Source of the DNA: Octopus sinensis
Taxonomy: Eukaryota
Direction of reading: 5' to 3'
DNA length: 64,000 nt
NCBI RefSeq assembly: GCF_006345805.1
Contig: NC_043013.1
Location: 37,820,001 to 37,884,000, forward strand
Shown: in pieces, positions 2,069 to 61,480 of the stretch
Layout of the letters: every line of letters begins with the position of its first letter
How positions within the stretch are numbered: the first letter of the stretch is position 1
Position numbers and translations under genes: made by a program
Notes under the pieces: generated by a model
Seen by the model: only the letters and a program-made list of their open reading frames with translations
Databases searched by the model: none
Told to the model about the DNA's origin: nothing

Positions 2069-2804
2069 TATAATTTCAACAATTGAGGGTAAAATTAATT
2101 AATTAATAATCAATTTCACCAAGTATTCATATGCAAAGGGACCATTTAAGGCAAATTCAAATTATTACATATATAAAAGGCTTAGTAAAAAATTACTTTG
2201 CCGCATACTGAACTCGTTAGAAATAGCAGCTAAAAAACTATTTCTAACACTTAAAGAAAACCTCTCTCATATAGTGTTTGCTCAATTCAACCCAGAAAGT
2301 ATGAGGGTAGAGACATTAAAAATCAAATGCAAAGGTATTTGAGTACGTACGTTCAAGATTAGCCAAATTCGACCCTTCTCTCATCAGCTCAGAATGCCCT
2401 TGTTTGAGTTTGAAAACACTGAAAATGGGAGCATACCCTTTCGGCTTGTTATCGCTTCTGAAGATCTGTTCCAAACTAACAGTGCAGCTAACTCAAATAT
2501 GCAAGAGAAAAATTTCTGTTCTCCCCCTTCCACCAGCGTGGGTTAAAATCAGCAAACACTATGCTTTTTTTCGGTAAAATCCAGACAATTAAGTAGAGAG
2601 AGATGAATTATAATTTCAACAATTGAGGGTAAAATTAATTAATTAATTAATCAATTTCACCAAGTATTCAGTATGCAAAGGGACCATTTAAGGCAAATTC
2701 AAATTATTACATTATATAAAAGGGCTTAGTAAAATAAATTACTTTGCCGCATACTGAACTCGTTAGAAATAGCAGCTAAAAAAAAAAAAAACTATTTCTA
2801 ACAC
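2069..2804 (-). mobile_element. Partial-tandem (about 1.35-mer, 540-bp period) non-coding element with a hammerhead-like motif; Penelope-like or retrozyme-like
   Basis: 2069-2250 is repeated at 2609-2804; each repeat ends in the hairpin GTTAGAAATAG..CTATTTCTAAC; (TA)n on both flanks; hammerhead motif at 2340-2391. Confidence 0.65.
2340..2391 (-). ncRNA. Type I hammerhead ribozyme-like motif (one A missing from GAAA)
   Basis: Minus strand TGAG-CTGATGA-GAGA..18 nt..TCTT-GAA-C-GTAC-G-TA-CTCA: stem I 4 bp, stem II 4 bp, palindromic stem III. Confidence 0.6.
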
Positions 2805-4819
2805 ATATATATATATATATATACACACACATATATACTCACAAACATTCACAGGGGTTAAATTACAGCAATATTCGTCTAAACCAGGACTGCCATTTTA
2901 TGTTGGCAAATAATTTTATAATCCAAATTACTGTTGCTGAATATCTTCGTTGTGAGATCACAAATAGTAATTTTCTAATTTACATACCTATTTACAAAAA
3001 ATAATCCACACATAGAAACATACACGTTTATACACACAGACACACACATATTTATATACACACTTAGATAGATACTCGTATATATATATATATATATATA
3101 TATATATATATATATATGCAGAGAGAGAGAGAGAGAGAAAGTTAGAGTGACAGACAGATAGAATGTAAGAGAGAGATGAGAGGGGAGTAAGGGGTAACTG
3201 ATTGACCAGTAGATAGATAAACAGCAAAGCACATGCGCGCGCGGACGCACACACAAAGGCAGGCAGATACATGTTCATTTATATGCTTAATAAGTTTGAT
3301 TTATAGAACTAACTGAGAATTTGATGTCGAAATCTGAAAGCAAGGAATTAATGGAAAGTCCAATTTGTAATGTAGTAGGTATGTAATATTCCGGTGTTAA
3401 TACAAGTTTTGAAAAGCCAGCGTAAAATTTGTAATTTACGTCTCATAGTCGAAATAAGTCAGTTTTAGAAAATTACATACATATATTTGTCCGTTTTTTG
3501 TTCTCTTAATTAGGACGAATAAACGGAGGTGGTGGGGGTATTTAACAGTACCCATGGCATTCATTGAGGTTCATCAGTCTTGAGAAATATATGCGGTTAA
3601 TGTTATTTATTACCCTTTTCTTTTCTTATGTTTTTTTGTATAAAATGCATAACATGAAACATTTGAAAACAAAATAATAATAATAATAAAAATAATAAAG
3701 GTTTGTTTTGTGAAAGTCTCAGTGGAGACTAACATCTTTATATCATCTGAAGACAACGAAACTGTCAAATAGAATATTTTACAACTTGTTGAAAATGTCT
3801 TAGCGGATTGTTTTCCTGTTATGAAACAAGAAGCACAAATGAAACATCTTGTGTATGCTTAAAGTAGTATGTGTTCATTTTATTTATCATATATTTATTA
3901 GTGTTCGATATTAATATATATAATTGAATCTATTTTTATTTTGTACTGATTTACGGCTTTCCCCTTATAGCTTGTATCTATATTTTTGCTGCTGTTGTTT
4001 GGAGATTTGCACATCTTTTGTTTTGATTTTATATTTTTTTCCTTCAGTTTTGTTTTTAATATATATACTGTTTTGATTTCATCTAATTTCAAAGAAGAGA
4101 TTTAGATGTGTTCATAAGTTTTCGAACTTCGCAAATTCATAAGTTGTGATTTCAAATCTACAGAAGGCTTCTGAATTCGTTTCAAAAATTAGGATTCTTA
4201 CTTTAGGCACCTTATCTATATCCATTTTTAGGCAGAAACAAAACGGAAAGCATAGAATCTAAAGCTTTTCACTTATAGGTCATAGGCATTTTATTCAGAA
4301 AAAAAACATAATATTCCTTTTTCTCTGTAAAATAGATAAAACACTATTGTATACCATTGAACATGGAGGAAACAAACAACTGACACACTAACCATAAACT
4401 GTCTCAGTGGTAGCATACTGTAACAAGAAATATATCTGAAATCGTGTACTCTATACGACAAACTACAGCATGCTAGGAAGAACCAAAAAATTCTTCATTT
4501 GCCAGAAAAATTACTATAACCACGTGCCAATGTCAGAGATTCCGCTGTAGATAACGTAAGGCAAAAACTGTGCTGATGACGCTTATTGAGGAAGGAGAAA
4601 CGCTTTTCTTTTTTTCCATTTTTTGTCTCTTTGATTAATGGCATAGCATGCCACCGGCTTATCTGAGTGCTTTCCCGTAGATAATTTTTATGTATCTATA
4701 TACATATATATATATATATATACCTATGTGTGAGCATATATATGTATGTATGTACGTACGTACACATGCACATGTATATCTATATATATATACATATATA
4801 ATATATATATATATTATAT

Positions 4820-6295
4820 TAATAATAACATAATATATATGTATATATATTATATATGTGTGTGTGTGTGTGTGTGTGTGTGTGCGTGTGTACTGTTGAG
4901 AGATTGACATTTGGAAATACATATATATGAGTATATAAACATATGAATATACTCTATTATACGACCATTTATATATCTATACACTTATGTACGTGCACTA
5001 ATACGTATACAGATTCATTTATGCATATATATATATATATATATATATATATATATATATACATTTATCTTTCTATTCTTGTCCCGTGACTGCCTCAATC
5101 CACATTTTTTGATATTTGATCTAAACCTCTTCAGTTGCGTCATCCTTACATTGTTAATTATCTCGTAACAACAGTTTAAGGCAATTACTATACAATAAGT
5201 GGCAGATAAATTGGAAGAGAATATGTGAGGATTTTTTCGTTCCTGTGTTCGTAGGTGAATGTGATTTTTGTGTTGGAGACAGATATCGTTTTAGATAGAC
5301 AGACAGATAGGTAGACTGTTTAGGGAAATGCAGATATTAATGTGTTTGTGTATATATATATACATACATACACTAAAATTCTTGTATATATATATATATA
5401 TATATATTATATATATATATATATATATATATATATATCATAAATGTATATTCAAGCATCGAAAGCATATACCATTGATAAATGTATGCGTCTCTGCTTG
5501 TAATATATATATATAATAAATATATATATATCTATATATATATATATATATAGATATATATATATATATATTATAATAATAACATAATATATATGTATAT
5601 ATATTATATATGTGTGTGTGTGTGTGGTGGTGTGTGCGTGTGTACTGTGAGAGATTGACTTTGGAAATACATATATATGAGTATATAAACATATGAATAT
5701 ACTCTATTATACGACCATTTATATATCTATACATTATGTACGTGCACTAATACGTATACAGATTCATTTATGCATATATATATATATATATATATATATA
5801 TATATATATACATTTATCTTCTATTCTTGTCCCGTGACTGCCTCAATCCAAATTTTTTGATATTTGATCTAAACCTCTTCAGTTGCGTCATCCTTACATT
5901 GTTAATTATCTCGTAACAACAGTTTAAGGCAATTACTATACAATAAGTGGCAGATAAATTGGAAGAGAATATGTGAGGATTTTTTCGTTCCTGTGTTCGT
6001 AGGTGAATGTGATTTTTGTGTTGGAGACAGATATCGTTTTAGATAGACAGACAGATAGGTAGACTGTTTAGGGAAATGCAGATATAATGTGTTTTGTATA
6101 TATATATACATACATACACTAAAATTCTTTGTAATATATATATATATATATATATATATATATATATATATATATATTATATAATATATATATATATATT
6201 ATATATATATATATATATAATATATATAAATGTATATTCAAGCATTCGAAAGCATATACCATTGATAAATGTATGCGTCTCTGCTTGTAATATAT
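4820..6295. repeat. Near-identical tandem duplication, period about 0.72-0.78 kb
   Basis: About 4820-5510 matches about 5575-6295; differences are mostly single-base indels and microsatellite length. Confidence 0.9.
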
Positions 6296-7462
6296 ATATA
6301 TATATATATATATATCTATATATATTTATGTATGTATGCATGTATGTATGTATGTATGTATGTATGTATGTATGTATGTATGTATGTATGTATGTATATG
6401 GATATATATATTTATGCACATGCAGAGTGGCAGGAAGAGAGACGTCAGAGAAATAGAAAGAAAGACAGAAATGGAGACAGACAGATATAGAGTTGAGTAA
6501 ACTAATAATCATTGCTTATATATTACATTGACGAGACCTAGAGGCGAAATGTGTACAAGTATTTTTTGTGTCTGTCTATCTACCTATCTATCTGTCTGTC
6601 TGTCTGTCTGTCTATCTACCTACCTACCTATCTATCTATCTATCTATCTATCTATCTATCTATCTATCTATCTATCTATCTATCTCTACATCTTTGTATG
6701 ATTCCATTTATCTGTTTCTTTCTTTATAACAACACATTTTCTATCTCTGTCTCTTTCAGTGTATATATATATATATATATATATATATATATATATATAT
6801 ATATATACACACATTCGCACGCAAAGAGATATCCCGTTATATATGTAAGTATTCACATATATATATAAACATATGCACACATGTAATTATGTGTTCTTGT
6901 GTGTATATGTGGGTGTACATATACATATATATATATATATATATATATATATATACATACGTACATATATATATGTATATATATATATGTATATACATAC
7001 GTACATATATATATATATATATGTGTGTATATATATATATATATATACATACATATATACACGCACTCATACATAAATATATATGAACACACTCAAACAC
7101 ATGCATATACATTCGTTACAATCCACTTTTCCTCTCCTTCCCTTTTTTTTCCTCCCATTTATTTGACAGGAAGATTCTGCGCCAGCTTCCATTACTTACG
7201 CGAAATGGCAATCGTTTTCAATCTGAAAAATCAAGCCCTCCTGTAAATAAGCTGTCCAAAGCAGCTAAAGTAAATGGATATATATGTCGCTAGGAGGCGT
7301 ATATGTCACTTTAGACTAGATCTCCCTTGTCAGCGTCGGTTGATGTCTCTTTTATACCATGGGGCAATGCGAAAAGGATGACGCAATTTAGATAAACGGA
7401 CACGAAAATCTGCCGTAATTTGTTCGTACAAGAACTGATGCTTAGGATGGCTCATGGTGGCT

Positions 7463-60724: not shown

Positions 60725-60901
60725 TTATATGAATAATATATAGTCTATTGATTAATTTTTCTACATGCTAGGCCACAGGTAGCAACAAATTTATAAAATC
60801 TTTATTACCCTGATATTATTAACTATATGTGTGTGCGTGTGTGTGTGTGTATGTGTGTGTGTGTGTGTATGTGTGTGTGGGGGTGTGTGTGAGTGTGTGT
60901 A

Positions 60902-61123
60902 TTTCGAAATGTAACCACATGTAGATCGTTGGCAATTTTTTTCCTCGGTCTTCCTTTTCCCTTGGAGTTACTTCCGTCTCCTGTTTCTGATGAAGAGCTT
61001 TGCTCGATATATAAAACTACCTTTCTTTCCTTCCTTGACCGTCTGCTAATACTTTGCATGGACCACGTCCTGGCGTTGCTTTTTTTTTTGTTGTGTTTGT
61101 TTTTCGTATTTTCTTATTTACTA
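60902..61123 (+). mobile_element. Diverged sister of the 59920 element, with decayed hammerhead (60983-61017)
   Basis: GTTT-CTGATGA-A-GAGC-TTT-GCTC-GATA-TA-TA-AAAC; shared CGTTGGC..TTTTTTCC and CCACGTCCT..CGTTG. Confidence 0.68.
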
Positions 61124-61380
61124 TATGTGTGTGTGTGTTTGTGTATGTGCGTGTAAAAAGGTTGAAGTAGATTCGTCCTTTAATTTGGAGGTTACCAAAA
61201 AAGATTTCTGATATCGATTCTTCATATTTTGCTGGTAGTTTACAGGCGTAAATTTACGAGTATGAAAATAATACTCGTATATTATGTGTTGTGAATTTAT
61301 GGAAAGAAATCCCATAAAACTCAACAGATCTGTTAGAAATGGAGAAGAGATCTTAAAATATATAAAAGAATTTAAATTCA

Positions 61381-61480
61381 TGCAGACGATCGTTTCGTAC
61401 AGAGATAAAAAAAATCATGCAAGTTCATGGTTGAATTGAATTTATAAAATTAATTATATATCACTGTACTCTTCAGTTAA
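61381..61480 (-). ncRNA. Hammerhead-like motif with canonical core and long stem II, stem I not formed
   Basis: Minus strand CTGAAGA-GTACAGTGATA..TATCTCTGTAC-GAAA-C-GATC-G-TC; stem II 10 of 11 bp. Confidence 0.55.

Follow-up and report, generated by a model that had tools for sequence, protein, structure and literature searches.

Minimal hammerhead ribozymes are a known component of the Penelope-like elements (PLEs) of metazoans. According to the accessible part of the survey that described them, they are mostly single motifs from truncated elements, number 2,000-9,000 per genome and have low activity as dimers; the supplement of that survey includes the molluscs Lottia and Crassostrea (Cervera and De la Pena, 2014, PMC4209133). 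Retrozymes that lack long terminal repeats (non-LTR retrozymes) have also been defined in metazoans, mussel included (Cervera and De la Pena, 2020, PMC7229834). More recently, retrozymes have been argued to be non-autonomous derivatives of the pseudo-long terminal repeats (pLTRs) of PLEs, in a study whose available text samples no mollusc and reports cleavage of one dimer out of nine (Li, Clavereau and Pollet, 2026, 10.64898/2026.07.22.740005). The present analysis concerns a stretch of 64,000 nucleotides (nt) from Octopus sinensis (NC_043013.1:37,820,001-37,884,000), hereafter called the window, in which an initial annotation had flagged nine minimal hammerhead motifs and had ascribed them to several unrelated, non-autonomous retroelements occurring roughly once per 7 kb. 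The host genome, of 2.72 Gb, is very rich in (TA)n and in repeats resembling short interspersed elements (SINEs).

The motifs are best read as minimal type I hammerheads of PLEs. Three of the families involved are the 3' ends of coding PLEs, two are discrete non-coding units that are likely mobilized in trans, and three have no parent among the loci searched but bear the insertion signature of PLEs. We assign this reading a probability of roughly 0.8. The main weight of the finding lies in a lineage with a substitution of A by U at core position 6 (A6U) and in the tandem arrays of one of the non-coding units.

Authenticity and abundance of the motifs

A strict type I hammerhead descriptor found a perfect core at only one of the nine flagged sites of the window (29749), and at most one core mismatch at three of them (12979, 29749 and 60987), the corresponding means in 50 local dinucleotide shuffles being 0.00 and 0.08. 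Each of the nine regions was also searched against the whole genome, which gave 500-3,800 first-look candidates for seven regions, 14 for that at 40815 and two for that at 12760, and 14-30 top copies were aligned per family. These relatives restore the full type I motif at eight of the nine sites, all but 12760. The defects of the window copies, as judged from the aligned relatives, are therefore the decay of individual copies, with the exception of the fixed U6 of the family at 12974. This restoration test is not circular, since the relatives were picked by sequence similarity and not by pairing. Both core boxes, the palindrome and the UH cleavage site were kept in 24 of 30 copies for the site at 59998 (family A), 7 of 15 for 60983 (family I), 25 of 30 for 29743 (family B), and 16 of 20 for 12974 (family C) with position 6 left unconstrained. 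The same held for 19 of 20 copies for 2340 (family D), which are not independent as many share arrays, for 10 of 20 for 8758 (family E), for 2 of 14 for 40815 (family F) and for 7 of 20 for 61381 (family G).

Chance matches in AT-rich, microsatellite-laden DNA could be invoked for such a collection, given that the strict descriptor missed eight of the nine window copies and that the motif at 12760 looks like a mis-parse. However, in a sample of 94 evenly spaced 10-kb regions (940 kb) of the genome, 13 perfect motifs were found, against none in any of four shuffles and none in the reversed sequence, and motifs with one mismatch numbered 26, against 0-4 and 3, respectively. Moreover, five exact patterns yielded 28,560 matches over the whole genome (A/I type, 11,378; C type, 16,139; D, 566; B, 460; G, 17) and none in reversed-pattern controls. 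The chance explanation is thus refuted for eight of the nine sites and retains a negligible probability overall, and the earlier contention that PLE-type minimal hammerheads populate diverse repeat families at a density far above that of shuffled sequence is upheld.

The ninth motif (12740-12800, minus strand) is not supported as a hammerhead. It has only one other genomic match, and what had been taken for its GAAA box finds its best alignment (5.8 bits, not significant) in sequence lying downstream from the family C hammerhead; the motif is at most the fossil of a C-like element. The eight others are, on the strength of the alignments, mostly decayed copies of real hammerhead motifs in repeat families.

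The 940-kb sample contained 39 family-profile matches spanning the hammerhead, one of which (L247) is probably a low-complexity artefact, and 10 descriptor matches from other families. This amounts to about one motif per 20 kb, and by extrapolation to a genome-wide total of the order of 10^5, decayed copies included, so that the figure of one per 7 kb does not extend to the genome. By the detection used, motifs are about 2.5 times as dense in the window as in the genome on average, a difference due in part to profiles that derive from the families of the window itself. The number of motifs is not the number of ribozymes, since most copies are decayed. Rfam was of little help in finding them: the best 150 of its 242 matches in the window were microRNA-type and other matches on microsatellites, and none reached the gathering score on three loci with intact motifs.

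Architecture of the hammerheads

Type I topology, CYGANGA and GAAA boxes, and stems I and II were found in the alignments of families A, I, B, D, E, F and G, and not at site 12760. As had been proposed, stem III is palindromic in all eight families, reading CG, CGTACG, CAGCTG, CATG, CGATCG or, as a near-palindrome, CTCTGAG, and the stems differ between sites and still pair: there are seven distinct stem I sequences, all pairing, and six distinct stem III palindromes. The predicted self-duplex energies range from -3.5 to -13.1 kcal/mol across the eight families. Core position 6 is A in all of them but family C, and the G10.1-C11.1 pair is present in A, I, C, B, F and G. Among six A/I/C-type subfamilies, the mean identity is 0.81 in the hammerhead, against 0.45 in the upstream and 0.55 in the downstream flanks (60 columns), and in other PLE families of the genome position 3 covaries with position 8 (C-G, U-A, A-U). 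These are signs of selection on the motif.

Other PLE families with U3-A8 core hammerheads are found at L240:6041-8500, L255, L239, L329, L338 and L342-344 (L numbers designate genomic loci), and the 3-8 covariation is extended by A3-U8 hammerheads and one G3-C8 hammerhead at L340:2072 (plus strand), L066:~1900 (minus) and L233:522 (minus). The family at L240 is very young, all 150 scored endonuclease matches being 98-100% identical, with 18,361 candidates.

Hammerheads at the ends of coding elements

Families A and I are sisters, and C is related to both; since the motifs at 12974, 59998 and 60983 have stem II and downstream sequence in common, the elements cannot all be called unrelated. In the window, family A is represented by a solo pLTR of a putative Neptune-type PLE (59922-60140, plus strand), whose hammerhead (59998-60032) has a U4C core and one stem II mismatch. 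Family I, its older sister, lies at 60899-61122 (plus) with a hammerhead relic at 60983-61017 that reads GATA-TA. The family C copy, likewise the 3' end of a putative Neptune-type PLE (12912-13103, plus), contains the A6U core fixed in its family (hammerhead 12974-13011). A broken GIY-YIG endonuclease fragment is present at 48669-48964 (plus), and its initial annotation as a Penelope relic proved correct: compared with a PLE endonuclease from the genome, it shows 61% identity over 64 amino acids (aa), with an E value of 7.5e-20, although Pfam did not detect it. This relic led to 150 genomic matches, and 20 loci were extended. Of the relatives scored, the one closest to the relic is L173 (71%), which has a family C unit at its end.

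At L204, two family A copies lie 5.4 kb apart, one at each end of an element, and match that of the window with 91 and 85% identity; the frames between them give weak RVT_1 and GIY-YIG matches. L202 has two A-like pLTRs, 98% identical to each other, which enclose a 1008-aa open frame that combines a reverse transcriptase (RT) with a GIY-YIG motif and a CX4CX2C linker. A-type units also end L206, L212, L213, L214, L216 and L220, and I-type units end L217 and L219; in these RT and GIY-YIG elements, the hammerheads of A, I and C lie about 100-120 nt from the 3' end. Family C sequence was found 390-700 nt downstream, on the same strand, in 11 of 12 loci chosen solely by endonuclease similarity. 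Nine of the 12 have a recognizable hammerhead, with U6 in all nine, and none has an intact full-length frame. Because coding loci end in these units, A, I and C are, as judged from their sequence context, the 3' ends (pLTRs) of protein-coding PLEs, and the non-autonomous reading is wrong or at least unproven for them. The coding elements match the Neptune type, an assignment by analogy from the linker and the (TA)n bias and not from RT phylogeny, and they have long, CA-rich 3' untranslated regions (UTRs) of 0.5-3 kb between the open reading frame and the pLTR. At L202:6156-6627 (minus strand), a family C unit abuts the 5' pLTR of the coding A-like element via a short (TA)n tract, a sign that such elements become inserted in the tails of one another.

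Families A, I, C, E and G are not arranged in tandem but occur mostly as solo copies or inverted pairs. The solo A and I copies have a sharp 5' end: 28 of the 30 top A copies begin 92-103 nt upstream of G12, and 15 of 23 unselected A/I copies, from which the two of the window were excluded, begin within a 22-nt zone between -105 and -84. None of the 23 starts at the cleavage site, and one extends 777 nt, far into the 3' UTR. In coding elements the UTR continues upstream of this start, the solo unit being collinear with their last ~220 bp. For another PLE, it is reported that both strands are primed at AT-rich DNA, that the RT initiates immediately downstream of the 5' pLTR, that the protein assists cleavage, and that the main template is RNA which has not been processed (Frangieh, 2024, PMC11167929), and a PLE promoter has been located in the pLTR (Schostak, 2008, PMC2377424). 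In view of the sharp ends, the continuing UTR and these two reports, solo A/I copies may have a strong-stop origin. Copying would begin at the end of the 5' pLTR on RNA that had not been cleaved, proceed as far as the fixed 5' end of that RNA, some 100 nt upstream from the hammerhead, and stop at this transcript start; the ~220-bp solo pLTR would be the resulting strong-stop-like complementary DNA (cDNA), integrated without a jump. We hold this origin tentatively, at a little short of even odds.

Its main rival is that the ~220-bp A/I units, and those of C, are true SINE-like non-autonomous families born from pLTRs, with an internal promoter and lineages of their own. Such families would equally have sharp 5' ends and few copies that, like the one of 23, reach far into the UTR, and they would explain why solo copies are 96-97% alike when the best coding A element found is only 92% identical. 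However, the unit corresponds collinearly to the last ~220 bp of coding elements, in which the UTR extends further upstream, a TATA-like tract discerned by eye 30-40 nt upstream of the solo-pLTR start in L204, L206, L212 and L216 is absent from solo copies, and a closer parent may exist, only 20 coding loci having been sampled. The SINE-like alternative is possible, at somewhat longer odds than the strong-stop origin.

The A6U core of family C

Family C is the largest family by exact matches. Among 33 loop-4 copies found away from the query centres, 29 have U at position 6, three have C and one has A, and position 7 takes all four bases, whereas all of 47 loop-3 copies have A at position 6. 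Position 17 is A, U or C in family C, and all other catalytic positions are kept. As U6 is common to subfamilies with strongly diverged flanks, the substitution appears, from these alignments, to be old and not the product of recent decay.

Whether such a core cleaves may be questioned. A natural A6C hammerhead, that of phage Bcep176, is reported to be slow in Mg2+ and active in Mn2+, changes at A6 strongly lowering Mg2+ cleavage (PMC3088659, PMC7151607). The motif of the A6U lineage, and perhaps that of all these PLEs, might have ceased to cut, its fold being retained as a signal to the PLE RT, for protein binding or for pausing. The prevalence of U6 in diverged subfamilies of a lineage that still reached 16,139 exact matches fits this proposal, as do genomic copies running across the cleavage site and the lack of effect of hammerhead mutants on insertion in vitro (PMC11167929). 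On the other hand, the other catalytic positions and the UH rule have been kept while position 7 varies freely, as for a working core, although the UH rule is partly built in, the exact patterns having excluded G at H17. We consider a non-cutting signal rather unlikely, and some cleavage in vivo within the whole set of motifs moderately probable.

Non-coding units

Family D has a unit of 552 bp whose longest ATG-initiated frame is 82 aa. In the window, (TA)n tracts enclose 1.3 units (2070-2804, minus strand), with a hammerhead at 2340-2391 that has a canonical core, a CGTACG palindrome and one A missing from the GAAA box; this A is present in contigs of three of four public runs. An extended stem I with an internal loop is predicted. 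Family D was also seen in assembled contigs from three further organisms with no listed core change, contigs being by nature uninformative on ends, strand and circles. One array, on sequence C7 of the genome, spans 12.6 kb, with 21 direct and two inverted units that are 99.2-100% identical, (TA)n on both sides, and intact hammerheads in all 23 units. The first 100 listed of the 566 D matches form 28 clusters, namely five single, seven tandem only and 16 with an inversion, the latter all back-to-back. The arrays are dispersed over many chromosomes and end at two fixed 3' termini.

For D, cleavage of tandem transcripts would take place in the dimeric form that the palindromic stem III allows and would give 552-nt circles, which would be copied round and round into multimers. 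Because the arrays are dispersed, TA-bounded and back-to-back, insertion of a multimer in one step, from a circle or by repeated jumps, is the best reading of them, and templating by circles is rather likely. Alternatively, monomers, once inserted, might have grown on the spot into a satellite through unequal crossing-over, with the hammerhead as a passenger. The near identity of units within an array is in keeping with such growth, and local amplification is preferred for retrozyme arrays by Li et al. (2026, 10.64898/2026.07.22.740005). In contrast, dispersal, (TA)n boundaries, two fixed 3' termini and uniformly back-to-back inversions are not predicted by recombination, and every hammerhead of the array examined is intact. 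Local satellite growth is therefore distinctly unlikely, and circle-templated insertion is the likelier reading.

Family B forms a discrete non-coding unit of ~1.5-1.6 kb whose longest ATG-initiated frame is 75 aa. The window contains a full-length 1.5-kb unit with (TA)n flanks (28598-30295, plus strand), which includes an optional 175-bp tail (30121-30295) and a hammerhead at 29743-29873 with a perfect core, a 92-nt stem II insert and a CAGCTG palindrome. Among 30 copies, nine start at the same base and the others are truncated at the 5' end, an inverted segment being present in several of them; the tail is present in 11, and one locus is tandem. Only D and B proved to be discrete non-coding units, and for these two the non-autonomous reading of the initial annotation stands, as does the existence of a large non-coding population.

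Families E, F and G are less well defined. Family E, often with an inverted partner, is represented by a 3' part at 8645-8807 (minus strand) that ends in (TA)n, with a hammerhead at 8758-8803 decayed by an insertion and a 2-nt deletion. Family F is old and diverged (40790-40873, minus), and its hammerhead relic (40815-40855) has two core changes. The G copy (61190-61588, minus), of ~330 bp plus a short shared extension, has a hammerhead at 61381-61480 with a ~70-nt stem II insert and a broken stem I. E and G, like the other families, end in (TA)n, F less clearly so. Pieces of E and D near endonucleases were considered as marking parents and rejected, since they are nested insertions whose strand, or whose side relative to the endonuclease, is wrong.

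Origin and mobility of the set

A PLE origin of the whole set is very probable. In the mechanism that we propose, a PLE protein would nick (TA)n on both strands and prime reverse transcription at the pLTR end, target-site duplications being unreadable inside (TA)n, and the same protein would likely mobilize B and D in trans. Most genomic copies would be dead on arrival and decay neutrally, selection keeping the motif only in active masters.

Several observations weigh against this account. No RNA end, circle or cleavage was observed here, and in the accessible text of Li et al. (2026, 10.64898/2026.07.22.740005) eight of nine Xenopus retrozyme dimers did not cleave. No coding parent was found for B, D, E, F or G, either by tblastn of their own loci or downstream of 80 endonuclease loci, a search that covered part of PLE diversity only. 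The Pfam matches to the PLE frames are weak and do not reach the cut-off. At 10.1-11.1, where G-C is usual, D has a G-U and E an A-U pair. The hammerhead is not the minimum-energy fold of the monomer for A, C, D and E, and folding z-scores, from +1.8 to -1.0 in five regions, are unremarkable; poor monomer folding is expected of dimer-type motifs, yet it is no evidence for them. The 5' truncation points of family C are broad in a random sample, so that the sharp 5' end is not general, and the greater likeness of solo A copies to one another than to the closest coding element also fits a self-propagating short family.

A combined scenario, in which the commonest hammerhead would be an A6U variant that remains able to cleave, be it as a dimer, with the PLE protein or with another metal ion, solo pLTRs would be integrated strong-stop cDNAs, and a 552-nt retrozyme circle would be copied by a PLE protein into back-to-back multimers in a single insertion, is doubtful as a whole.

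Other repeats

Outside the window, further hammerhead families were noted at L306:612 and 1213 (minus strand), L238:8412 and 9734/9768, L286:7017/7449 and L221:5311. Among them are back-to-back pairs as well as two motifs that are separated by 601 bp, have an insert of 80 nt in stem II and may represent a second retrozyme. Within the window, a broken long interspersed element (LINE) with RVT_1 matches above cut-off occupies 10323-12171 (minus), and a 3' end related to it, with 32 copies of an 18-bp tandem repeat, lies at ~53800-54800. Two similar frames without a Pfam match (32662-33015 and 55879-56268, both plus) resemble, in their motif, the restriction-like endonuclease ends of a non-LTR element. 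Two abundant SINE-like repeats occur at 48444-48668, at 60150-60560 and in at least 10 other places, often beside the same (TA)n tracts, and local duplications of microsatellite-rich DNA, with periods of ~750, 428 and 1,010 bp, are found at 4772-6357, 30292-31161 and 37239-39447.

Relation to known systems

These results add a genome to those with very many PLE hammerheads, most of them invisible to Rfam and standard descriptors. How animal retrozymes move is unsettled, and the D arrays, which have PLE insertion signatures, are young enough to set circle-templated insertion against local satellite growth. The need for cleavage by PLE hammerheads is likewise unsettled, and a lineage with a fixed A6U core that has been amplified more than its canonical sister constitutes a natural experiment. 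The literature on octopus or cephalopods in combination with hammerhead, Penelope or Neptune, Repbase lying outside the search, yielded no description of these families, and one searchable supplement file of Cervera and De la Pena (2014) held no octopus entry. A literature search for A6U hammerheads gave nothing relevant, and none was found in the searched passages of the same supplement; an earlier description may exist.

The closest counterparts are the minimal hammerheads of Cervera and De la Pena (2014), with which, as far as the available text goes, the present motifs share type I topology, a short stem I, a bulged base after A9 and a CG palindrome at 15.2-16.2. They also share a pLTR location, thousands of single copies, several consensus families per genome and U3-A8 variants. 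They differ in number, with at least 28,560 exact matches against the 2,000-9,000 motifs reported, in the A6U change fixed in the largest family, in the 70-100 nt stem II inserts of B and G, and in the sharp 5' end of solo pLTRs. The change at position 6 has a natural precedent in the Bcep176 hammerhead (PMC3088659, PMC7151607), which is A6C and not A6U; here it belongs to a eukaryotic retroelement with about 16,000 copies.

The coding elements resemble the Neptune PLEs, as these appear in the accessible part of their description (Craig et al., 2021, PMC8557442), in having GIY-YIG at the C terminus, a CX2-5CxxC linker and a preference for insertion into microsatellites, as well as partial tandems, copies that are inverted and 5'-truncated, and an optional tail. 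Their long CA-rich 3' UTRs differ, and their assignment to Neptune and not to Nematis is provisional. Family D, for its part, resembles the non-LTR retrozymes in its non-coding head-to-tail units with one type I hammerhead each, its dimers to 20-mers and the PLEs with which it co-exists. By the figures available, its 552-bp unit exceeds the 170-400 nt given by Cervera and De la Pena (2020) but falls within the 51-972 bp of Li et al. (2026). It differs from retrozymes in its PLE-type back-to-back inversion and (TA)n targeting and in that the search found no pLTR parent. The kind of system is thus already known, and its less ordinary features are the A6U core, the 70-100 nt stem II inserts and the solo pLTRs with a sharp 5' end.

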